64,000 nt of DNA, from contig OY969474.1 of the NCBI GenBank assembly GCA_963700145.1, forward strand, positions 3,968,001 to 4,032,000, read 5' to 3'. Position 1 is the first letter of the stretch; the number at the start of each line of letters is the position of its first letter. The notes below the pieces were generated by a model. That model did not search any database, was not told where the DNA came from, and worked only from the letters and a program-made list of their open reading frames with translations. Of the stretch, positions 1 to 64,000 are shown one piece after another. Both the position numbers and the translations under genes were made by a program. Origin of the DNA: an uncultured Acidobacteriota bacterium (GTDB lineage Bacteria > Acidobacteriota > Thermoanaerobaculia > Multivoradales > UBA5704).

Positions 1-97
1 GCGCATGCCTGCCGGGCCGGCAAAGATCCTCCTGCAGGTCGTCGCCAAGCACCCCGAGGCAGTCTGGGACGTCGTAAGACCAAAGCAGACAGCGTGA
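1..97 (+). CDS. 3' end of XRE/HigA(NadS)-like HTH antitoxin (partial, runs off window)
   Basis: Frame 2 reads RMPAGPAKILLQVVAKHPEAVWDVVRPKQTA*, matching the 'R.P.GPA..LL.....HPE' tail of short XRE antitoxins. Confidence 0.7.
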   Translation, partial: RMPAGPAKILLQVVAKHPEAVWDVVRPKQTA

Positions 98-101
98 AAC
101 T

Positions 102-185
102 GTGGAATTCCAGCTCGATGACGCCCTGGAGATTCTGGCGCGGACGCCTGCCGCGCTCGCCGGCCTGCTCGACGGCATCGGCCCG
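102..185 (+). pseudogene. 84-bp orphan 5' fragment of the dinB gene at 2085
   Basis: 77/84 nt identical to 2085-2168; begins exactly at the GTG start; encodes VEFQLDDALEILARTPAALAGLLDGIGP. Confidence 0.9.
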
Positions 186-342
186 TGCGTTATCGGTTCG
201 AGAGCACCGCTGCGCTCCAAGCTATGTGCAGAGATCCGGATACTTCTTCAAGCGTTGACAGCCTCTCCTGCCCACCAATAGACTTCCCAGTAGAAGAAGC
301 GCGAGCTACGCACGGCACTTTTGAGTTCCATCAGGGGGCAAA

Positions 343-759
343 ATGCGTGAAGCCAAGCTCTTTGACTCACATGGTTTCGTCGTCACAACGGAGCGGTTCG
401 TCTACGGCTCCAAGGTCGTGCCACTAGCCGAAATCACAATCGCTATGGCAAACATCATCCGAGGTTGGGCCGCCTTGATCATCGCTGTAATCGGTATAGG
501 ACTGGTTGTATGGGGCGGAGTTCTCTTGAAGATCCTGGGTCTAGGCTTGCTACCCGTAGCCTATCTCGTCTTTATTCGGATGACCGAACGCCTAGTCGTT
601 GTGGCAACTAAAGATGGCAAGTTCATGGAGTTCAAAGTCGAAACAACCGAGCTGCTCGAAAATGTAGTAGGAGCTATCAACAATGCGCTCCGGGACCGGC
701 AGAGAGCCCACGCAGCAAATCTGCGGGCCGAACTCGATAGCCTTCCAAGTGTGAGGTGA
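343..759 (+). CDS. Two-TM membrane protein, DUF6232-like
   Basis: VVTTERFVYGSKVVPLAEIT strand region followed by a hydrophobic hairpin; lower GC. Confidence 0.6.
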   Translation: MREAKLFDSHGFVVTTERFVYGSKVVPLAEITIAMANIIRGWAALIIAVIGIGLVVWGGVLLKILGLGLLPVAYLVFIRMTERLVVVATKDGKFMEFKVETTELLENVVGAINNALRDRQRAHAANLRAELDSLPSVR

Positions 760-792
760 CAGACTATTTACCAAAGTGGATAGGAGATAACC

Positions 793-936
793 ATGGCAAA
801 GGGCAAGAAGTGCCCGCAATGCGGCCATCAGATGTATGCTATATCTGAGGATCATCAGCCAAAAGGAACATGGGTGGTGTACGAATGCCGGAATGGTAGC
901 TGCAAGTTTCAAGAGAAAGTCTTTGAAGGCCGATAA
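793..936 (+). CDS. 47-aa Zn-ribbon protein (not in ORF track)
   Basis: AGGAG RBS at 782-786; MAKGKKCPQCGHQMYAISEDHQPKGTWVVYECRNGSCKFQEKVFEGR* with CxxC...CxxxxC. Confidence 0.75.
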   Translation: MAKGKKCPQCGHQMYAISEDHQPKGTWVVYECRNGSCKFQEKVFEGR

Positions 937-970
937 GGTCGGATAGGCTGATCGGCAAATTGAGGCGCCT

Positions 971-2032
971 ATGGGCAGGGCTGAAGACATCTTTGAGCGG
1001 ATCTCGCTGGAAGGCGAGGCAGCTATAGACGAATTCATCCTGACGCGAAAGTCCGAGGAGCTCTTCCTTGACTTTAAACGATCGGCGGATGAGGGCAGTG
1101 CGGGCCACTTACACCAAAACGACCGCAACAATCTAGGACGAGCTATATCCGGCTTTGCAAACTCCGAAGGCGGTGTAATCGTCTGGGGCGTGGACTGCCG
1201 CCCCGGACCAGGCGGTGCAGATGTTGCTCGATTCAAGTTCCCTTTAGTCGATAGCGCGGCGTTCGCAAGCTGGCTAGAGAGCGCTGTGTCAGGATGTACC
1301 ATGCCAGCCTGCACCGGCGTTCGAAGCATTTCCATAGCAGGGAATGAAGACGCCGGATTCGCCGCCACCTACATTCCAAAGAGTGCCCGCGCTCCTCATC
1401 AGGATCTAGCCAGGGGCGGTTACTATATCCGGGCAGGTTCGGACTTCTTGCCGGCTCCCTATGGTGTGCTTGCCGGTCTATTTGGGAAGCGTCCTGAACC
1501 CTTCGTGTTCCACCAGCTCTACATTGAGAAATCGATCCAGATCTCCTCTCAAGAGTCGGCTGTCGATGCGGTCGTTGGATTTGTTCTCGTCAGTGACGGC
1601 CCGGGAATCGCACGAGATCTCTTCATGAGCTTGGATCTCCTCCATCCTGGCGGAAAATCGTCATTTTTCCTGGAGCACACTCACGAGACCATCTTTGACT
1701 ACTATCACCACTTCGGTATTCACCTGAGCGTGATCAGCAAGGACGGCTTCAAGCTTCCCCCTGGTGGGCGAATCCACGTCCTCACCATTAAGATTCATCT
1801 CGTTCCACCTTTCACAGGCGATGGTCTCTATCTCAACTTAAGCTACGGTTGCTCCGGAGCGCCGACAAGGCAGAGAACACTCACGCGCGAGGCAACCACG
1901 TTAGAGCGGCTTTGCCGAACAATCGGAGGCTTGCCGAGCGAGGAGAGGAATGCGTTTTTCATAAGCGAGTTTCTCGGGGAACTCGGGCCAGGGGAACTCA
2001 CCGAAAGGTCACCGATGGTTGGGGAGAGGTGA
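971..2032 (+). CDS. Schlafen/AlbA_2 domain protein with unknown C-terminal domain
   Basis: E.LFLDFKRS, AISGFANSEGGVIVWGVD, PHQ and YYIRAGSD motifs of AlbA_2. Confidence 0.85.
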   Translation: MGRAEDIFERISLEGEAAIDEFILTRKSEELFLDFKRSADEGSAGHLHQNDRNNLGRAISGFANSEGGVIVWGVDCRPGPGGADVARFKFPLVDSAAFASWLESAVSGCTMPACTGVRSISIAGNEDAGFAATYIPKSARAPHQDLARGGYYIRAGSDFLPAPYGVLAGLFGKRPEPFVFHQLYIEKSIQISSQESAVDAVVGFVLVSDGPGIARDLFMSLDLLHPGGKSSFFLEHTHETIFDYYHHFGIHLSVISKDGFKLPPGGRIHVLTIKIHLVPPFTGDGLYLNLSYGCSGAPTRQRTLTREATTLERLCRTIGGLPSEERNAFFISEFLGELGPGELTERSPMVGER

Positions 2033-2084
2033 TGCAGCGGCTTCCGGTGGGGCCGGGAGTTCTAACCCGGGGATCTGGCTAGCC

Positions 2085-2615
2085 GTGGAATTCCAGCTCG
2101 ATGACGCCCTGGACGTTCTGGCGCGGACGCCCGCCGCGCTTGCGGGGCTGCTCGACGGGATCGGCCCGGGGTGGCAGGGGGCGAACGAGGGGCCGGAGAC
2201 GTGGAGCCCCGTCGACGTCCTGGGGCACCTGATCCACGGCGAGGAGACCGACTGGGTGCCGCGCGCCCGGATCATCCTCGAGCGGGGCGAGGCGCGGCCG
2301 TTCGATCCGTTCGACCGGTGGGCACAATTCACGCGTTTCGAGGGCTGGTCGCTGCCGGCTCTCCTCGCCCGCTTCGCAGAGTTGCGCGGCGAGAACCTGG
2401 CGACGGTCCGCGGCTGGAACCTGACGAGCGAGCAGCTCGACCGCCGCGGCCGCCACCCGGAGCTCGAGATGGTCACGCTGCGCCAGCTCCTCGCCACCTG
2501 GGTGGTGCACGACCTCGATCACGTGGCGCAGATCGCGCGCGTCATGGCCAAGCGCTACGCCGCGGACGTCGGCCCCTGGGAGAAGTACCATTCGATCCTG
2601 CGAGACCGCCGATGA
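2085..2615 (+). CDS. DinB/YfiT-family protein (putative metal-dependent thiol transferase)
   Basis: WSPVDVLGHL, GRHPELEMVTLRQLLATWVVHDLDH metal-binding His pattern. Confidence 0.85.
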   Translation: MEFQLDDALDVLARTPAALAGLLDGIGPGWQGANEGPETWSPVDVLGHLIHGEETDWVPRARIILERGEARPFDPFDRWAQFTRFEGWSLPALLARFAELRGENLATVRGWNLTSEQLDRRGRHPELEMVTLRQLLATWVVHDLDHVAQIARVMAKRYAADVGPWEKYHSILRDRR

Positions 2616-31456: not shown

Positions 31457-32046
31457 GGCCGCGCGCGCGGCGGCTCCGCCAGGAGCTGCTCGATCCGGGC
31501 TTCCAGCTCGGCGTAGTCGCCGTCCCCGGCGACGTACTGCCCGCCGGGGTGGATGTGGCGGACGACCCCCTCGCGGTCGAGGAGGAAGGTGACGCTGGTC
31601 CAGCCGGAGGGGACCTCGTCGAGCCACCAGCGCCGCAGCGTCCGCCAGCCGCCGTCGATCGCCACCGGGAACTCGAAGCCGAGGTCGCCGGCCCACGCCT
31701 CGACCTGCTCCGGGTCGAGGCGCGAGCCGCTCTTGTGGTGGTAGAAGCCGAGGACCGCGAGGCCGCGGTCGCGGTAGCGCCGGTGGAAGTCGTTGAGCGC
31801 CGGCGCCGTCGCCCGGCAGAAGGGGCAGTGCGGCGCCGTCCACCAGCGCACCAGGACGACCTGGCCGCGCAGGTCCGCGAGCGTCACCGGCCGCCCGTTC
31901 AGCCAGTGCGACACGCTCCACTCCGGCGGGCGCTTGCCGAGGAGGTCCTCGACGCCCTGTCCGCGCGCCCCCGGCGCCGCGGCAGCGAGCGGCGGCAGCA
32001 GCAGGACGAGCGCGGCGAGCCCGGCGAGACCTCTCGCGCCGCCCAT
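31453..32046 (-). CDS. Secreted TlpA/redoxin-family disulfide reductase
   Basis: Signal peptide; DLRGQVVLVRWW...CPFC; TFLLDREGVVR. Confidence 0.8.
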   Translation of the reverse strand: MGGARGLAGLAALVLLLPPLAAAAPGARGQGVEDLLGKRPPEWSVSHWLNGRPVTLADLRGQVVLVRWWTAPHCPFCRATAPALNDFHRRYRDRGLAVLGFYHHKSGSRLDPEQVEAWAGDLGFEFPVAIDGGWRTLRRWWLDEVPSGWTSVTFLLDREGVVRHIHPGGQYVAGDGDYAELEARIEQLLAEPPRARP

Positions 32047-32089
32047 CCTAGCCCTGGCCGGCGCCGGAGCGCCTGATAGGATTCGCTCG

Positions 32090-34039
32090 ATGTCGCAGCC
32101 CGCTGTCCGCGCGTTCGCTTCTCCTCCTCGCCGTCCTTGCCGCCGCGCCGGCCGCCGTCCACGCGCAGCTCGCGCCCGTCGGTCCCCAGCTCACCCTCGT
32201 CCCGCTCGGCGAGACGAACTTCGACGACCGCCCGGCGGTGGCGGCCGGCCCCGAGGGGTTCGTCCTGGCCTGGACGAGCCCCCAGCCCGACCCGGCGCCC
32301 GGCGGCTTCGCCACCAGCATCTCCGCCCGGCGCTTCGACCTCCAGGGGCGCGCCGCCGGGGCGGTGGTGCGCGCCGACCTGCCGCCGGAGCCGTTCGCGG
32401 ACGGGTTGCGCCTCGAGCCGACGGTGGCCGTCGGCCGCGACGGCGGCTTCGTCGTCGCCTGGCACGAGCGTCGACGACCGCGACGTCCACGCCCGCAGCT
32501 TCGGCCCCCGCGACCGCGCGCGGGGCCGCCGACTTCGTCGTCAACACCACCCGCGACTTCTGGCAGGTCCTGCCCAAGGTCGCCGCCGATCCGCGCGGCG
32601 GCTACACCGTCGTCTGGGTCAACAGCGACGTCGGCGACCAGGGCCCCTGGCCCGAGGGCGCCTTCGGCCAGCGGCTCGACCTCGCCGGCCGCAAGGTCGG
32701 CGACGAGTTCCCCCTAGACCAGACCGAGGCCGCGGACCGGCAGGTGGACGTGGCGATCGCGACGAACGGCGAGCGGCTGGTGGGCTGGTGGTCCTGGCTG
32801 CCCGAGCTCATGGTCCGCCGCCTGGCGCGCTCCGGCGCTCCCCTGACCCCCGAGCTCAGCGCCAGCGGCCACTCGGAGTGGCACGGCACCACCTCGATCT
32901 GCGCCCTGCCGGGCGGCCGCTTCCTGGCGGCGTGGGAGGCGCCGTTCCCGGAGGAGGGCCTCTTCGCCCGCGGCATCGGGGCCGACGACACCCTCGGGCC
33001 GATCCACCGGATCGACCCTCCGGGCGATCCGCTCCGCGGCCGGCCCCACCTCGCCTGCGACCGCTTCGGCGGCGTCCTGGCCGTCTACGCGGCGTTCGAC
33101 GGGACGGTCCGCGCCCGCCAGCTCGACCTCTCGGGGGCGCCGGCGGGGGAGGAGGTCGTCGCCGGCGACTGGCCCCACGAGCTACTGCCCCCGGCGCCCG
33201 TCGCGGCGCTGGGACCGGGCGGCCGCGCCCTGGTCGCCTGGCGCTCGGACGGCGCGGCCGGAACTGGCGTCGCCGGCCGGGTCCTGCAGCTCGGCCCCGC
33301 GGCCTGCGTGACGTCCGACACCGACCTCTGCCTCCACGGCGGCCGCTTCCGGGTCCGCGCCCACTGGCGCATCCCGAACAGCCGCGACGCCGGCCTCGCC
33401 CGCGCCCGGCCGCTCCTCAACGACACCGGCACGTTCTGGTTCTTCGCGCCCGACAACCTCGAGCTGGCGGTCAAGGTGCTCGACGGGCGGGCGGTCAACG
33501 GCCGATTCTGGGTCTTCGCGGGGTCGCTGACGACCGTCGAGTACTGGCTCGAAGTCTTCGACACCGCGACCGCGGCGGCCCGCACCTACTACAACCCGCC
33601 CGGCAGCCAGGCCGGGATCGCCGACACGGGCGCCTTCGTCGCGCCGGCGGCCGCGGCCGCGGTCTCGCCGCCGGCCCGAGGGCCGGCCGCGGCGTTCCCG
33701 GCGGGTCCTTGCGCCGGCCCGCCCGCGACCCTCTGCCTCGGCGGCGGCCGCTTCGCCGTGGAGGTCACCTGGGACATCGGCTCGGCGACCGGCGCCGGCA
33801 CCGCCGTCCCCCTGACCGCCGACACCGGCGGCTCCTGGTTCTTCGGCGACCAGAACGTCGAGCTCCTCGTCAAGCTCCTCGACGGCCGCCCGGTGAACGG
33901 CCACTTCTGGGTCCTCTGGGGGGGCCTGACGACGGTGGACTACACCTTCAGGGTCACCGACCTCGCGACCGGCGAGCGGAAGGAGTACCACCACCCCGCC
34001 GGCTCCCTGCTCGGCGGCAGCGACAGCGTGGCGTTTTGA
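32090..34039 (+). CDS. Secreted protein with two C-terminal lineage-typical repeat domains; three apparent frameshifts (about 32120, 32470, 32520)
   Basis: Signal peptide and P.VA....G.F.VAW repeats split across three frames; tandem LCL.GGRF.V...FWFF..N.EL.VK.LDGR.VNG.FWV...AF domains. Confidence 0.75.
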   Translation: MSQPAVRAFASPPRRPCRRAGRRPRAARARRSPAHPRPARRDELRRPPGGGGRPRGVRPGLDEPPARPGARRLRHQHLRPALRPPGARRRGGGARRPAAGAVRGRVAPRADGGRRPRRRLRRRLARASTTATSTPAASAPATARGAADFVVNTTRDFWQVLPKVAADPRGGYTVVWVNSDVGDQGPWPEGAFGQRLDLAGRKVGDEFPLDQTEAADRQVDVAIATNGERLVGWWSWLPELMVRRLARSGAPLTPELSASGHSEWHGTTSICALPGGRFLAAWEAPFPEEGLFARGIGADDTLGPIHRIDPPGDPLRGRPHLACDRFGGVLAVYAAFDGTVRARQLDLSGAPAGEEVVAGDWPHELLPPAPVAALGPGGRALVAWRSDGAAGTGVAGRVLQLGPAACVTSDTDLCLHGGRFRVRAHWRIPNSRDAGLARARPLLNDTGTFWFFAPDNLELAVKVLDGRAVNGRFWVFAGSLTTVEYWLEVFDTATAAARTYYNPPGSQAGIADTGAFVAPAAAAAVSPPARGPAAAFPAGPCAGPPATLCLGGGRFAVEVTWDIGSATGAGTAVPLTADTGGSWFFGDQNVELLVKLLDGRPVNGHFWVLWGGLTTVDYTFRVTDLATGERKEYHHPAGSLLGGSDSVAF

Positions 34040-34040
34040 G

Positions 34041-34102
34041 ACTCATCTTCAGGGGCCTTCAGCGGCCGGCGTCAACCGTCCGCTGCAAGGCCCGTGTTAT
34101 GC
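34041..34102 (-). mobile_element. Integron attC site (62 bp) with non-canonical R' (GATGAGT)
   Basis: GCATAAC-ac-GGGCCTT(G)CAGCGG..loop..CCGCTGAAGGCCC-ctgaa-GATGAGT; inverse core overlaps TAA of upstream gene. Confidence 0.85.
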
Positions 34103-34918
34103 GTCATCTTTGTCCTCTCGGGTCTCCGGTGTATACACGAACTTCTCAAGCGCCTCCTTGTCCAATTTGCCCATCATCAAGAGGAATGCATTCAAGGTCT
34201 GTTGCACGAACGTGGCGCGCTCTTTGTATGGGGCTATCATACAAGCGAGAAGGCACAGCCTTACGACCCGCTTTCTTTGCTCCTTGAGAGTCTCGGTGGT
34301 TCCCCCGACAACTCCAGGTCGTCCCGACTCGTCAGCATAGAGGAGAAGATTCCTCGTGTTGGCGCGCTCTTCTATGTACTTCATTACATCCCCTTGCGCC
34401 GGACCCTGTGCGAATTCCTCAAGCTGGCGCTCGAAATGGTAAGGCTGACCTGGCTGCTCCTCCGAGACAAGAAAATTGAATGGGGTATCAGGACTGCCCC
34501 ACCGCCCATCAGGGGCTAGAAACTCCCATATAAGGTGAGGCTTCGCCTCTTCCTCGACTAACCTGAGACGGACTGGTGGGAACTGTGAACTAACCGACGC
34601 CAGAAACTTGTATATCTGCATGACAAAGGGATAGAGAGCTGCCTTGTACGGGTGACTCCATAACTGGATCTTCTCTGAGTTCGCATAACGCCGCTGGCGG
34701 AGGCTAAAGAATACAGCGGTGGCGGCCTCCTCCTCAGCTGTTATCGCTCTGAACATTGCCATCTCGGGATCGATATCTACAATCTGGCCTGCTCGCTCAA
34801 GGTGATGAAAGGCATGGCGCGCACATTGAAGCACACGCCCGCTGGTGGCCTTGAGACCTTCCACAACCAGATTCTCTAGTCTCTGGTCATCAAGCTTAGG
34901 TGTCTCTTCATCACTCAT
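34097..34918 (-). CDS. Cassette gene: AbiV-like HEPN protein (putative anti-phage)
   Basis: AMFRAITAEEEAA, HPYK and RNLLLYAD motifs resemble AbiV HEPN; bounded by core GTTATGC (34930-34936) and attC. Confidence 0.6.
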   Translation of the reverse strand: MSDEETPKLDDQRLENLVVEGLKATSGRVLQCARHAFHHLERAGQIVDIDPEMAMFRAITAEEEAATAVFFSLRQRRYANSEKIQLWSHPYKAALYPFVMQIYKFLASVSSQFPPVRLRLVEEEAKPHLIWEFLAPDGRWGSPDTPFNFLVSEEQPGQPYHFERQLEEFAQGPAQGDVMKYIEERANTRNLLLYADESGRPGVVGGTTETLKEQRKRVVRLCLLACMIAPYKERATFVQQTLNAFLLMMGKLDKEALEKFVYTPETREDKDDA

Positions 34919-34962
34919 AACGTTCTACCGCATAACGTTCACCACATCCACCCTTTAGCTAC

Positions 34963-35021
34963 GGCCAACTTCGTAGCCCCTCGCCGGCGGCGAAGCCGTC
35001 CGGTGCAGGGGCCGGTTAGCC
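34963..35021 (-). mobile_element. Integron attC site (59 bp)
   Basis: GGCTAAC-cg-GCCCCT(G)CACCGG(A)CGGC-ttc-GCCGCCGGCGAGGGGC-tacgaa-GTTGGCC; two extrahelical bases; overlaps TAA. Confidence 0.9.
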
Positions 35022-35615
35022 GCTTCCCACGTCAGCACGATCACGCGCGGTATCCTTGCGTGCAGGAGCTGGCGCCTGAAAGCGATCAAGGAGGCTCGTT
35101 GCGCCATCCCAACCGTAGTGACTCATATATTCGCGGATTCTGCGAAGCTTCGGATCGGGGGAATCGGGCCGCAGGTGCACACCCCAATAGTCAAGGTAAG
35201 GTTCAACATCGCTCTCCGTGATGAGACCGGCGCGAATATAGCTCTCGAAGCGTTCGAGGCCGTCGCATAGCGTATCAAAAGCATCTCGAACCGCGGTCTC
35301 CTTCTCCGTGAAAGTGCAGCCATTGCCGTGAGGTCGCAGAGCATCGACGATCTCCTGAGCTGAGATGAATTCGAGCCGGTCGGGATTCTCTCTATGCGGG
35401 AAGAGCTGAATCGGCCGCCAGCCCCAATCCACCATCTTGAAGGCCGCGTCAACTTGTGGATTTGTAAGGAATTCCTTCATCTCCTGCGACACCCATTCGG
35501 CTCGCTTCCAGCGCTGAGCCTTCTTGTACTGGAGCAAGCCCACGACAAAGGCTACGCCTGCACCGAGGAGAGCGAACGCCGTGAGTGTCTGCTCCGCATT
35601 CCAGTTTGACAGCAT
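35016..35615 (-). CDS. Cassette gene: single N-terminal TM hypothetical protein (DUF4760-like)
   Basis: TM then QYKKAQRWKRAE; core site GTTGGCC at 35631-35637 upstream and attC downstream. Confidence 0.65.
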   Translation of the reverse strand: MLSNWNAEQTLTAFALLGAGVAFVVGLLQYKKAQRWKRAEWVSQEMKEFLTNPQVDAAFKMVDWGWRPIQLFPHRENPDRLEFISAQEIVDALRPHGNGCTFTEKETAVRDAFDTLCDGLERFESYIRAGLITESDVEPYLDYWGVHLRPDSPDPKLRRIREYMSHYGWDGATSLLDRFQAPAPARKDTARDRADVGSG

Positions 35616-35728
35616 TAATGGCTCCAAGTCGGCCAACTCTTGTCTGGTAGCGCTCTGCCACCCGCCTCGTATTGGATGACCGGGGACACTTTGCGGGACG
35701 GCGGCGAGTGCATCGTAGGATAGTTCTC

Positions 35729-36117
35729 ATGAACGACGTGCTGCCGTGCCTCGACCTGCTCGAAGCCACTCCCGCTATCCTGCGCGGGCTGATGTCCGAG
35801 ATCTCCGCAGAGGACGCGCACTGGAAGCCGGCAGCCGACCGTTTCTCGATCGCCGAGGTGCTCTCGCACCTCTCGCATTCCGAGGCGCACTGCTACCGGT
35901 CCAGGCTCGACCGGTTCCTCGCCGAGGAGCGCCCGGAGTTCGAGCCGGACGATGCGCAGATGCATCTCGACGTGTACCGGAATGCCGACCCCGAGGAGGA
36001 CTTCGCGCACTTTGCGGACCAGCGTGAAACCAACATCGAGCTGCTGCGGGGCTTGCCCGCCGAAACCGGTGTCCGCAAGGCACTGCATCGGTTCGCCGGT
36101 GAGATCACGTTGTCCCA
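35729..36117 (+). pseudogene. 3'-truncated, inverted diverged copy of dinB 37168-37680
   Basis: Same protein to EITLSQ with about 8 aa changes; lacks C-terminal HDIGH; upstream CGTAGGATA..TCTC also shared. Confidence 0.9.
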
Positions 36118-36158
36118 GGCGGCAGCGCCAGCGCGGCGTTTTGAGACTCATCTTCAGG
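36118..36158 (+). repeat. 41-bp copy of 34013-34053 (gene 3' end plus attC junction)
   Basis: GGCGGCAGCGmCAGCGyGGCGTTTTGAGACTCATCTTCAGG, 39/41 identical. Confidence 0.9.
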
Positions 36159-36170
36159 CGCCGGTTATGC
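36146..36170 (-). mobile_element. Collapsed attC remnant
   Basis: GCATAAC-cggcgcctgaa-GATGAGT: same ends as attC 34041-34102 with the stem deleted. Confidence 0.65.
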
Positions 36171-36175
36171 GGCGA

Positions 36176-36767
36176 TTACTTGGTTCCACCGCTTGAACGT
36201 ACACGAACCCCTTATATCCCGCGAGTCTTGGATCGGGCTCATAAGAGACGTGAGGTTGATACTCCTCGTCCGCGTTGGTAGTGAGGAACGACCGTTCGTG
36301 TTGGTACAATCCGTGCCGGTCATTAGACCCCCACCAGATGAAATCGCCCAATCGCCCACTGACGTCCACAACCGGACGATTTTGGGAATCGAGCAGCTCG
36401 AACCGAAGGCTTCCGTTGAACTTTTCCGTATCGCGCCACAAAGCATCGTTGTGATCGCGGATGACGAGGTACACGCCACACGGCCGCCCGATGTCGGCGA
36501 GATCGGCCAAGTGGTACTCCAACTGCTGGGGGCTGGCCAGATCGAGCTCAGGCATGGTGATGCTGTAGCCCGGGGTCGGCAAAGGCCGGCAAACCACGAG
36601 ATGTCTTCAAAGCTGCCGTCGCCGCGATGGCTCGGGACGGGAGGAAGGAGCAAGCGGCGGGCGATGAAGAAGCCGCCGAGCAGCAAGACGGCCACCACCG
36701 CAATCTTGACTGCCCGACGCTTCCGCATTTCCTCAGCCTCGCGGAAGCTCTCGACAAGATCGTTCAT
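36176..36767 (-). CDS. Cassette-like membrane-anchored hypothetical protein, frameshifted (about 36595 and 36193)
   Basis: N-terminal TM in one frame, globular continuation (PGYSITMPELDL...GFVYV) in another; ends next to attC remnant. Confidence 0.5.
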
Positions 36768-37147
36768 CCCTCAATCATCTCGGTCCGGCTGAAGGAGCAC
36801 TGCTCCATCACGAGCCGCCATTCGCCGGCCTGTTTCTCCCAGACCATGACGCACCGATGGTCATCCGTGAAGGGAGTGCCCTCGAACGAGCCGGCACCCT
36901 GGTAGCGGTGCCGCACCACGACCGCGTCAGGGCCCACGACGCGGACGACGACTTCGGTGCGCGTGCCGTGATCCAGCCGATAGCTCGGTGAGCGGATGAT
37001 CGCCAGGATGGCTTGGCGATCGAGGCTCGAGCCGTCCGGGGCAACGTAGATGTAGTCATCGGCCGCCAGCCGTTCCACGGTCGCGGCATCCTTCTCCAGC
37101 CACGCCTGAAACCAGCGCTCACTCAGGTCATGCAACTCCGACGACAT
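36764..37147 (-). CDS. NTF2-like (DUF4440) protein
   Basis: WFQAWLEKDAATVERLAADDYIYV ... VWEKQAGEWRLV. Confidence 0.8.
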   Translation of the reverse strand: MSSELHDLSERWFQAWLEKDAATVERLAADDYIYVAPDGSSLDRQAILAIIRSPSYRLDHGTRTEVVVRVVGPDAVVVRHRYQGAGSFEGTPFTDDHRCVMVWEKQAGEWRLVMEQCSFSRTEMIEG

Positions 37148-37167
37148 CCGCCGGTCCTCCCGGATCG

Positions 37168-37680
37168 TCATGGCTTCAACCGATACTCTTCGCCCAATGG
37201 GCCGGCCCCCGCGAGATACTTCCGGGCGCGCACCAGTTCCGCGATCTGCCGGATGTGCCCGATATCGTGAAGCGCCCACTCGTGCAGCATCTGGGAGAGC
37301 GTGATCTCGCCGGCCGACCGATGCAACGCCTTGCGGCCGCCGGTTTCCGCGGGCAAGCCCCGCAGCAGCTCGATGTTGGTTTCACGCTGGTCCTCGAAGT
37401 GCCCGAAGGCCTCCTCGGGGTCGGCGTTCCGGTACACGTCGAGATGCATCTGCGCGTCGTCCGGCTCGAACTCCGGACGCTCTTCGGCGAGGAACCGGTC
37501 GAGCCTGGCGCGGTAGCAGTGCGCCTCGGAATGCGAGAGATGCGAGAGCACCTCGGCAATCGAGAAACGGTCGGCGGCCGGCTTCCATCGCGCATCCTCT
37601 GCGGAGATCTCGGACATCAGGCCGCGGAGGATGGCGGGAGTCGTTTCGAGCAGGTCGAGGCACGGCAGCACGTCGTTCAT
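37168..37680 (-). CDS. DinB-family protein
   Basis: FSIAEVLSHL, EWALHDIGHIRQI. Confidence 0.85.
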   Translation of the reverse strand: MNDVLPCLDLLETTPAILRGLMSEISAEDARWKPAADRFSIAEVLSHLSHSEAHCYRARLDRFLAEERPEFEPDDAQMHLDVYRNADPEEAFGHFEDQRETNIELLRGLPAETGGRKALHRSAGEITLSQMLHEWALHDIGHIRQIAELVRARKYLAGAGPLGEEYRLKP

Positions 37681-37686
37681 GAGAAA

Positions 37687-38343
37687 TTATCCTACGGAAG
37701 GGTAGGCGGCCGGCGGCAAGCGGCACGACGCCAACCAGTAGTGTGTGAGCTCAACGGTTTGGGAGTCGACTGCGCCGAGAGCATCGAGTCGCGACAGTAC
37801 ATCGGACATCGACGGGTAGTTCTTGAGGACCATGTGTTGGCTGCCGTCAGAGAGCGTCCTCTGCTGGTAGGTGTTGCCCTCGGCGTCACTGGCGACGATC
37901 GGGGAGCTACTGCCTAGAAGGAAGCGATTGTCGAAGAGAATCAAGAGGCTCGGAGACGCGCTCGGCCGCAGGGCGCGTAGCGCGTTAGCCAACCGGCCGA
38001 GCGGAATGTGGGACCACCAAAAGCCCGCGACGACGACGTCAAAGGGACACCGAAGAGGCTGCTGCAGGAGTGCGTCAGCGGCGACGAAGCGCGTGGAGCA
38101 AGCGTAGTGCTTCTGGCTTGCGACGCGAAGCACAGACATAGAGATGTCGCTACCGATGATGGACTCAGCCACTCGGGCGAGGCGCTGCGTCCAGTAGCCG
38201 GTGCCACAAGCCACTTCAAGGACACGGCCTTCGCGACACAGGAGGGCCAGCCTGGCTTCGAGGGCCGCGAGATCTGCCTGTCTCTCGGGCAGGCCGTAGA
38301 TGGCCTCGTACTCAGGGGCCCGACGGGAGTAGTAGTCCAACAG
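37687..38343 (-). CDS. Class I SAM-dependent methyltransferase (cassette-like)
   Basis: YYSRRAPEYE, VLEVACGTGYWT, GFWWSHIP; core site GTTAGCC at 38359-38365; start approximate. Confidence 0.8.
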   Translation of the reverse strand: MLDYYSRRAPEYEAIYGLPERQADLAALEARLALLCREGRVLEVACGTGYWTQRLARVAESIIGSDISMSVLRVASQKHYACSTRFVAADALLQQPLRCPFDVVVAGFWWSHIPLGRLANALRALRPSASPSLLILFDNRFLLGSSSPIVASDAEGNTYQQRTLSDGSQHMVLKNYPSMSDVLSRLDALGAVDSQTVELTHYWLASCRLPPAAYPSVG

Positions 38344-38375
38344 GCTGCGGCCGACTTGGGCTAACAAGCCCGATG

Positions 38376-38937
<562 letters not shown>

Positions 38938-39014
38938 TACGTAAGAGTACCTGGTTCGGCGTGATACCCGCTGCCCCGGGCGCAACGGTGACGGCGTTGT
39001 GCGCACTTGCCCAC

Positions 39015-63925: not shown

Positions 63926-64000
63926 CTACAGAAAGTCCGCCGGGCTGCGCACGCCTCGGCCGCCCTTGTTGAGGACGTGGGTGTAGATCATGGTGGTCTT
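63926..64000 (-). CDS. intI: Integron integrase, C-terminal 24 aa (partial)
   Basis: KTTMIYTHVLNKGGRGVRSPADFL*, the IntI-type TTMIYTHV...GV.SP.D tail with catalytic Tyr. Confidence 0.85.
   Translation of the reverse strand, partial: KTTMIYTHVLNKGGRGVRSPADFL

Follow-up and report, generated by a model that had tools for sequence, protein, structure and literature searches.

Clusters of attC sites, or single attC sites, that occur without an integrase are described as CALIN (clusters of attC sites lacking an integron integrase) and SALIN (single attC sites lacking one) in the accounts of Cury et al. (2016, PMC4889954) and Loot et al. (10.1101/2022.09.11.507474). The integron integrase IntI is also known to insert cassettes at genomic attG sites, for which a 5'-GWT-3' consensus is reported for IntI1 (10.1101/2022.09.11.507474), and the spread of integrons and cassettes by natural transformation is described by Domingues et al. 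(2012, PMC3410848) and in NAR 2025 (PMC12614218). Homology-facilitated illegitimate recombination (HFIR) has been invoked for displacement arrays, viz., the effector-immunity arrays of the type VI secretion system and the orphan modules of Rhs and contact-dependent inhibition systems (Kirchberger et al. 2017, PMC5361080). Here, we analyse a cargo locus lying downstream of a gene labelled A in a 64,000-nucleotide (nt) stretch (the window; C1:3,968,001-4,032,000) of G000, an uncultured Acidobacteriota genome of the Thermoanaerobaculia that consists of one 5.46-Mb contig, C1. The locus appears to hold two alleles of one hotspot stacked one behind the other, probably as the outcome of a single HFIR event. 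Each of its parts belongs to a known kind, whether CALIN-type cassettes, hotspot turnover or HFIR-like displacement, and what is new is their combination, the visibility of both parental alleles and the recurrence of the pattern through the genome. An initial annotation of the window had seen in it a candidate for an undescribed system, a description that is not supported, since CALIN/SALIN, attG insertion and displacement arrays formed by one-sided recombination have all been published; no new molecular machine is revealed.

The locus lies in a single low-G+C islet (34.0-45 kb of the window, 55-69% G+C) of a genome with a mean G+C of ~71.5% and, according to the threshold applied, between 171 and 199 small low-G+C islets. 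Based on open reading frames (ORFs) and Pfam matches, its gene order is A(+), c1(-), c2(-), a truncated dinB_a(+), a second copy of the A end, c3(-), DUF4440(-), an intact dinB_b(-), a methyltransferase(-) and RibD_C(-), where A is the left neighbour and c1, c2 and c3 are cargo genes. The window was compared with relatives that include two metagenome-assembled genomes (MAGs), G003 and G004, as well as G001 and a member of a different genus, G009, and with Logan contigs of four soil and sediment metagenome runs (X1-X4) aligned to positions 33000-39000. The attC sites were scored with a covariance model, R1, built from seven sites (that of c2, two from G004 and four from elsewhere in G000), with the site of c1 held out. 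The features that carry the argument are as follows.

31793..34039, + strand: gene A, a large repeat-domain protein (maximal ORF, whose 5' end need not be the true start)
34013..34057, + strand: anchor copy 1, in which the A 3' end (26 nt) and TGA are followed by the 9-nt spacer GACTCATCT and by TCAGGGGCC
34041..34102, - strand: attC of c1, R1 34.4 bits, E 3.5e-6, a non-training site
34097..34918, - strand: cassette gene c1, 273 amino acids (aa)
34963..35021, - strand: attC of c2, complete, 59 nt, GGCTAAC ... GTTGGCC, R1 69.5 bits (training sequence)
35016..35636, - strand: cassette gene c2, 206 aa, cassette start G↓TTGGCC (35631-35637)
35729..36117, + strand: truncated dinB_a (DinB_2), first ~389 nt, PF12867 profile positions 2-114 of 128, with a conserved ~33-nt leader upstream
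36118..36162, + strand: anchor copy 2, in which the 3' end (26 nt) of an A allele and TGA precede the 9-nt spacer, with the final codons and stop of c3 following in reverse complement
36154..36767, - strand: c3, an N-terminal membrane segment and a domain without assignment, its start overlapping the DUF4440 stop (ATGA)
36764..37171, - strand: DUF4440/SnoaL-like gene, PF14534, E 9e-20
37168..37680, - strand: dinB_b (DinB_2), intact, 170 aa, profile positions 2-128 of 128, E 1.2e-15

Two repeats organize this region, and the repeat search bears out both as they were first noticed: a direct repeat of 45 nt (34013-34057 vs 36118-36162; 93% identity) and an inverted repeat of 395 nt (35724-36118 vs 37291-37685; 92% identity), both arms of which are DinB_2. 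The direct repeat comprises the A 3' end (26 nt) with the TGA stop, followed by GACTCATCTTCAGG(G/C)GCC. The three differences between the anchor copies correspond to allelic variation found in G003, G004 and a metagenome contig, L034, in a five-allele alignment; copy 2 is 97.3% identical over 37 nt to the A end of G003, and its left edge is a non-homologous junction with dinB_a. The initial annotation placed an attC end against both copies. Only copy 1 abuts one: it reads CTTCAGGGGCC, letters that also serve as spacer and L' foot of the c1 attC. At copy 2, the neighbour is the 3' end of the c3 frame, with neither a hairpin (fold z -0.16) nor an R1 match at E<=10; c3 has no attC, its sole R''-like heptamer lies within the reading frame, and it is not a member of the cassettes. 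Here GACTCATCT is simply the spacer between the convergent genes A and c3, whose stops are 9 nt apart. The picture of a cassette adjoining the intact dinB also needs amending, as the DUF4440 gene (36764-37171) lies between c3 and dinB_b. A Pfam search of 34.0-39.0 kb revealed no transposase or recombinase domain, and an insertion sequence or transposon with target duplication was rejected given the lack of a transposase and a repeat of 45 nt that is only 93% identical. The palindromes at the borders (GGCGCC and GGAATTCC) were considered as a recombination or restriction site and dropped, since other brackets do not have them; the junction motifs, searched through the genome, are unique and form no family.

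The 3' end of gene A is the left border of a variable region. Orthologues of A, for which no Pfam family was found (32600-34036), are 92-93% identical over 31.3-34.05 kb in G003 and G004, and A is also present on L034. Both MAGs share A through ...TGAGACTCATCTT at 92-93% identity and then carry differing cargo, L034 has a fifth cargo at the same site, and G003 additionally has DUF4440-dinB_b-RibD_C at 94-95%. In the metagenomes, the two halves of the window locus occur apart. Record 1 of X1 (12,827 nt) covers 33000-35697 (A-c1-c2) and continues into a full-length dinB (+) and then DUF4440. Record 23 of X4 (2,426 nt) covers 33668-34057, then 36193-36783 and then 37161-38450; the 31 letters in its gap equal 36163-36192 bar one, and 137 other letters replace DUF4440. 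Thus, given the separate X1 and X4 alleles, the locus reads as allele 1 up to nt ~389 of dinB_a, followed by allele 2 from 26 nt before the A stop. The other two runs hold further arrangements, viz., A, 1,174 other letters and then dinB_a on record 16 of X3, and in X2 cargo of the L034 type, with c1-c2 on a separate contig (record 11 of X2 spans 34641-35638 with 14 other letters). An 11-nt sequence, CTTCAGGCGCC, which is the end of c3, is common to anchor copy 2, G004 and L034; in the latter two it looks like a short c3 remnant behind which other cargo may have been placed. The truncated dinB_a is 96.6% identical to its counterpart in G003 and 96.2% to that in G004, both of which are full-length (170 codons) and point the same way with respect to A, which marks the truncated form in the window as derived. 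The initial idea of two stacked hotspot alleles is thus supported, as each allele is found alone in independent metagenomes and dinB_a is full-length in both MAGs. The DinB genes, taken there as anchors, are at this locus cargo that lies inside the variable region.

Two dinB copies and two anchors that are 92-93% alike would also be left by an ancient duplication inside the genome, with later divergence and turnover of cargo. Such an origin is highly improbable here: G003 has both dinB_a and dinB_b as distinct genes, the window copies resemble their respective orthologues (96.6% and 95.4%) more than each other (~92%), and the alleles also exist apart.

We consider HFIR, as a form of allele displacement, probably the simplest single event that would stack both alleles. 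The DNA downstream of A would be a population-level hotspot with cargo that varies among related Thermoanaerobaculia. Allele 1 would comprise A, the 9-nt spacer, the attC cassettes c1 and c2, and dinB_a, and allele 2 A, the 9-nt spacer, c3, (DUF4440), dinB_b, the methyltransferase and RibD_C. DNA of an incoming allele from a relative may have undergone homologous recombination at one side, in A or in DUF4440-dinB_b, while the other side would have been joined illegitimately, possibly by end-joining. Such a product would retain the resident allele and add the incoming one, with a diverged copy of a gene end and a broken dinB_a as its scars. In agreement with this reading, donor and recipient forms occur separately in metagenome contigs and MAGs, and while one border would be homologous, the other is a non-homologous join: where dinB_a (...TCCCAG↓ATGC) meets A (...GCTCG↓GCGG), there is 1 nt of microhomology and no homology. 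Three Ku homologues are encoded in G000 (C1:31956-32495, 1365493-1366032 and 5001506-5002060; 170-174 bits each). The stacking itself would not require the integron integrase, whose part would be limited at most to the earlier history of c1 and c2.

HFIR was reportedly set out by de Vries & Wackernagel in 2002 and by Prudhomme et al. in 2002. Like the displacement arrays for which it has been invoked, the locus appears to have received an incoming allele at one conserved side, with part of the old one kept and fragments of conserved genes repeated. Unlike in those arrays, the cargo consists of cassettes and small stress and defence genes rather than toxin-immunity pairs, the anchor is only the 3' end of the neighbouring gene, with 26 nt of it repeated, and the arrangement is known in this phylum from sequence alone. 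As in the reports on natural transformation, cassette DNA would have entered the chromosome by host recombination and not by IntI, for which the evidence here is comparative.

Several points weigh against HFIR. The 1 nt of microhomology is shorter than that known from published HFIR joints. The route of recombination is an inference from the observed repeats, attC sites, truncation and separate alleles; either allele may have been the resident one, and the crossover may lie in A or in DUF4440-dinB_b. Natural transformation in this organism is suggested by gene presence, a hint only: G000 has ComEC, a family that is also present in 10 of 14 control genomes. Furthermore, no contig of the four runs bridges 36117/36118 (the best run contained a fraction of 0.34 of the words sampled), an unbroken match over 36118 was found in none of the 40 relatives searched, and the evidence for the junction is the assembly itself. 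Two matches to a 20-nt junction pattern, on L032 and L033, were due to chance and were set aside.

The lack of a bridging contig, and the occurrence of both alleles apart in metagenomes, would equally be expected if the assembler had concatenated two strains carrying alleles 1 and 2. We regard such a chimera as unlikely. Assemblers join via shared sequence, whereas the join here, at 1 nt, is non-homologous; the genome is a single 5.46-Mb contig; 20 other loci in it show the same type of bracket; and at a second locus of the window (locus 1, below) G003 independently has a dinB2 fragment upstream of the intact copy.

The two cassettes of allele 1 have the features by which integron cassettes are recognized, viz., R'' and R' core sites (RYYYAAC and GTTRRRY) able to pair and an imperfect hairpin with an extrahelical base within ~57-140 nt, c2 in full and c1 without R'. 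In the 62-nt attC of c1, R'' is GCATAAC and holds the c1 stop codon, the spacer is 7 nt and a GTT R' box is missing, its position reading G↓ATGAGT (GATGAGT replaces R'); the hairpin has a folding energy of -20 kcal/mol (z -5.6) with the R boxes unpaired in the DNA fold. In that of c2 the R''/R' and L boxes pair (fold z -2.5), and R'' likewise holds the stop of the ORF. The stems of both sites are of 5+6 bp with a bulged G. R1 is our own model and its sites were picked by attC-defining features, which makes it circular with respect to the definition, though the match of c1 is independent of training. A crude genome-wide attC scan (AAC...GTT with a hairpin) gave 455 candidates, mostly noise, and the covariance model was used instead; across G000 it finds ~12 sites (E<0.03), which fall into eight clusters with one or two members each. 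Those of c1 and c2 lie 860 nt apart, with no integrase domain in 31-41 kb. This distribution is the CALIN/SALIN picture, and the window site is, as judged from its sequence, of CALIN type. The likeness extends to one ORF per attC, a stop in R'', the absence of intI nearby and ~12 scattered sites. The differences are a terminal attC without the GTT R' and the presence of c3, DUF4440, dinB_b, the methyltransferase and RibD_C, which are without attC.

The genome carries one integron-integrase signal, which adjoins groES/groEL ~29 kb from the locus.

63935..64000, continuing to ~64198 beyond the window, - strand: C-terminal fragment of an integron integrase, TIGR02249 137 bits (cut-off 265), model positions 226-313, in a 125-aa open frame

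Its N-terminal half, an attI site and any array are missing on that side. No complete integron was found, with no intact intI in G000 and none over the cut-off in any of four congeners (completeness 81-95%); an intact IntI is found in eight of the 26 relatives searched. Beside five intact intI genes of four of these relatives, R1 gave one weak match (19 bits) in 100 kb, a survey of one flank only in which the attC types may differ, and a structural scan of the same 100 kb, again of one flank, found no arrays. The sparse matches near the intI genes of relatives are one result that may go against grouping sites of the c1/c2 type with working integrons.

The initial annotation proposed that integrase had loaded both anchors at the same base. 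Under this explanation, IntI would have inserted different cassettes at one attG in two lineages, and the anchor would be the recombination site. The expected R' G of c1 (34047) gives G↓AT, in agreement with the 5'-GWT-3' consensus of genomic sites for IntI1, c2 begins with G↓TTGGCC, and intact IntI does occur in the relatives mentioned above. However, the agreement at 34047 is indistinguishable from coincidence: the 11 nt adjoining the c1 junction (attC...G↓AT) are shared with the c3 3' end, so that the fit to an attG may be due to chance, and the right-hand motif CRGM (positions 6-9) is absent, the site reading TCTC. In G004 the attC lies 27 nt from the corresponding G, as against the usual 4-7 nt, and the junction does not fold. 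There is no attC at c3, a mere convergent neighbour of A, and the shared 11 nt are taken up by its own stop codon; an IntI crossover can neither duplicate 26 nt of A nor break dinB_a; and no intact intI was found in G000 and its four congeners. Loading by integrase at both anchors is accordingly very unlikely, and the one-sided recombination favoured above does not call for it.

A similar arrangement is seen at the left end of the window, where the initial annotation had noticed a separate dinB locus (102-2168) that proves to be real.

97..2173, + strand: second stacked locus (locus 1), with the DinB_2 5' end duplicated (97-185 and 2085-2173), 84 nt, 91.7% identity

The two copies bracket a 1.9-kb, low-G+C insert with DUF6232-like and Schlafen/AlbA_2 genes. 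Homology in G001, G003 and G004 begins at 2086-2087, at the first codons of DinB_2, the DNA upstream differs in each, and G003 has a dinB2 fragment and insert of its own. The inserts of G000 (186-212) and G003 (L035 848-876) open with the same ~25-nt motif, TTATCGG(G)TTCGWGAGC..GCTG, and are otherwise unrelated; the motif follows a different breakpoint of the dinB2 fragment in each genome and is unique in G000. Just upstream of the window (about -480 to 95) are two small genes that are toxin-antitoxin-like, the second of helix-turn-helix type, with 4 nt between their end and the left dinB2 fragment. The second of these genes is truncated in G004, where it abuts dinB2 directly.

A windowed self-BLAST of G000 was used to scan for further brackets, i.e., repeats of 35-400 nt with 75-97% identity and a spacing of 0.6-9 kb that enclose DNA of <=63% G+C. 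It returned 23 direct-repeat loci and three inverted-repeat loci, one of the latter being the dinB pair of the window. Two of the 23 direct loci are tandem 37-nt repeat arrays and were left out, which leaves 21 brackets with diverged repeats of 35-339 nt that are 79-96% identical. Regular direct-repeat arrays of ~37 nt at C1:1080361-1094650, probably clustered regularly interspaced short palindromic repeats (CRISPR), were excluded from this count.

C1:132809/137486, 970760/972231, 2139938/2141562, 3247231/3250572, 3503923/3507266 and 4820737/4824087, and in the window 97-2173 and 34013-36162: example brackets

In at least nine of the 21, the stop codon of a long host gene lies ~20 nt or less from the end of one repeat copy, and in two the repeats are DinB_2 5' ends. 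The cargo of seven annotated islets and locus 1 is mostly of the defence type, including two TIR proteins, a STAND/NACHT NTPase, RiboL-PSP HEPN, SIR2, Schlafen/AlbA_2, DUF429, a HAD hydrolase and a PGK-like protein, and no recombinase was found in any of them. Brackets contain four of the eight attC clusters, compared with 17 of ~191 other islets (Fisher's p 0.005, on small numbers).

An island flanked by direct repeats of a gene end resembles a classic attL/attR pair, and together with the recurrence of the pattern at 21 loci this could suggest a non-autonomous integrative element (34058-36117) that uses a replacement A end as its attachment site and is mobilized by a recombinase in trans. 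We consider this improbable, and slightly more so than integrase loading, as its right end would fall in a gene that is broken here and complete at this locus in G003, G004, X1 and X3, the bracket repeats vary in length (35-339 nt) with no common junction motif seen, and no integrase was found in the seven annotated islets. Allele stacking by one homologous crossover and one end-joined, non-homologous junction may be a general, integrase-free builder of cargo islets at core-gene ends in this lineage, an extension of the reading of the present locus that we put forward only tentatively and consider rather doubtful at present.

No match to c1 was found in Pfam or PADLOC; a match of Atlas features to HEPN_AbiV clusters (0.93; 208/256 features shared) offers a lead only that c1 may be HEPN/AbiV-like. 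In the window, c3 is split into two overlapping frames, and the X4 contig, which is without 2 nt at 36586, has a single 204-codon frame that ends at the TGA inside GGCGCCTGA; c3 is thus frameshifted near 36586 (36570-36600) and probably a pseudogene here. The dinB genes were ruled out as DNA polymerase IV, as they encode PF12867 four-helix-bundle proteins of 170 aa with no Y-family domains; DinB_2 has 20 matches in G000. Near-identical copies of dinB_a and dinB_b are present in other genera, dinB_b being 95.4% identical to its counterpart in G003 and 97.8% to that in G009. Genes of this type from four genera have a common ~33-nt leader, GACGGCGGCGAGNGCATCGTAGGATAGTTCTC, and only ~10 nt are shared past the stop.

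35683-35728 and 37681-37696 of the window, 3830-3862 of L023, and L024: dinB leader regions

The leader and gene move as a tight module that is without an attC detectable by R1. A likeness of the region upstream of dinB_a to a methyltransferase C-terminus (YW...VG followed by a stop) was rejected as a gene remnant, as it is part of the conserved dinB leader. Beyond dinB_b lie two further genes.

37687..38367, - strand: S-adenosylmethionine-dependent methyltransferase (Pfam), absent from G003 at this position
38377..39006, - strand: RibD_C-domain gene, Pfam E 4.1e-13

The methyltransferase is 45% identical in amino acids to a methyltransferase of G004 that is placed directly after an attC. The RibD_C gene has 88-94% nucleotide identity to genes in other genera, families and one order-level relative. 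Its summed contig depth in four soil and sediment runs is by far the highest, and it seems to be a mobile gene of very wide distribution. PADLOC gave no match for c1, c2, c3, DUF4440, dinB_b and RibD_C, and matched the methyltransferase to mad2.

Both parental alleles of the locus, and their stacked product, are visible in this natural, well-documented case. It indicates that no site-specific recombinase is required for a chromosome to gain cargo at a fixed site, and that attC cassettes can persist and spread in a genus in which no intact integron integrase was found. If the pattern holds, a diverged duplicate of a core-gene end would serve as a simple signature of such events in MAGs and would help explain defence islets that lack an integrase. 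Should allele stacking be general in this lineage, integron cassettes would here travel between chromosomes mainly as passengers of hotspot alleles, and not by the action of IntI.

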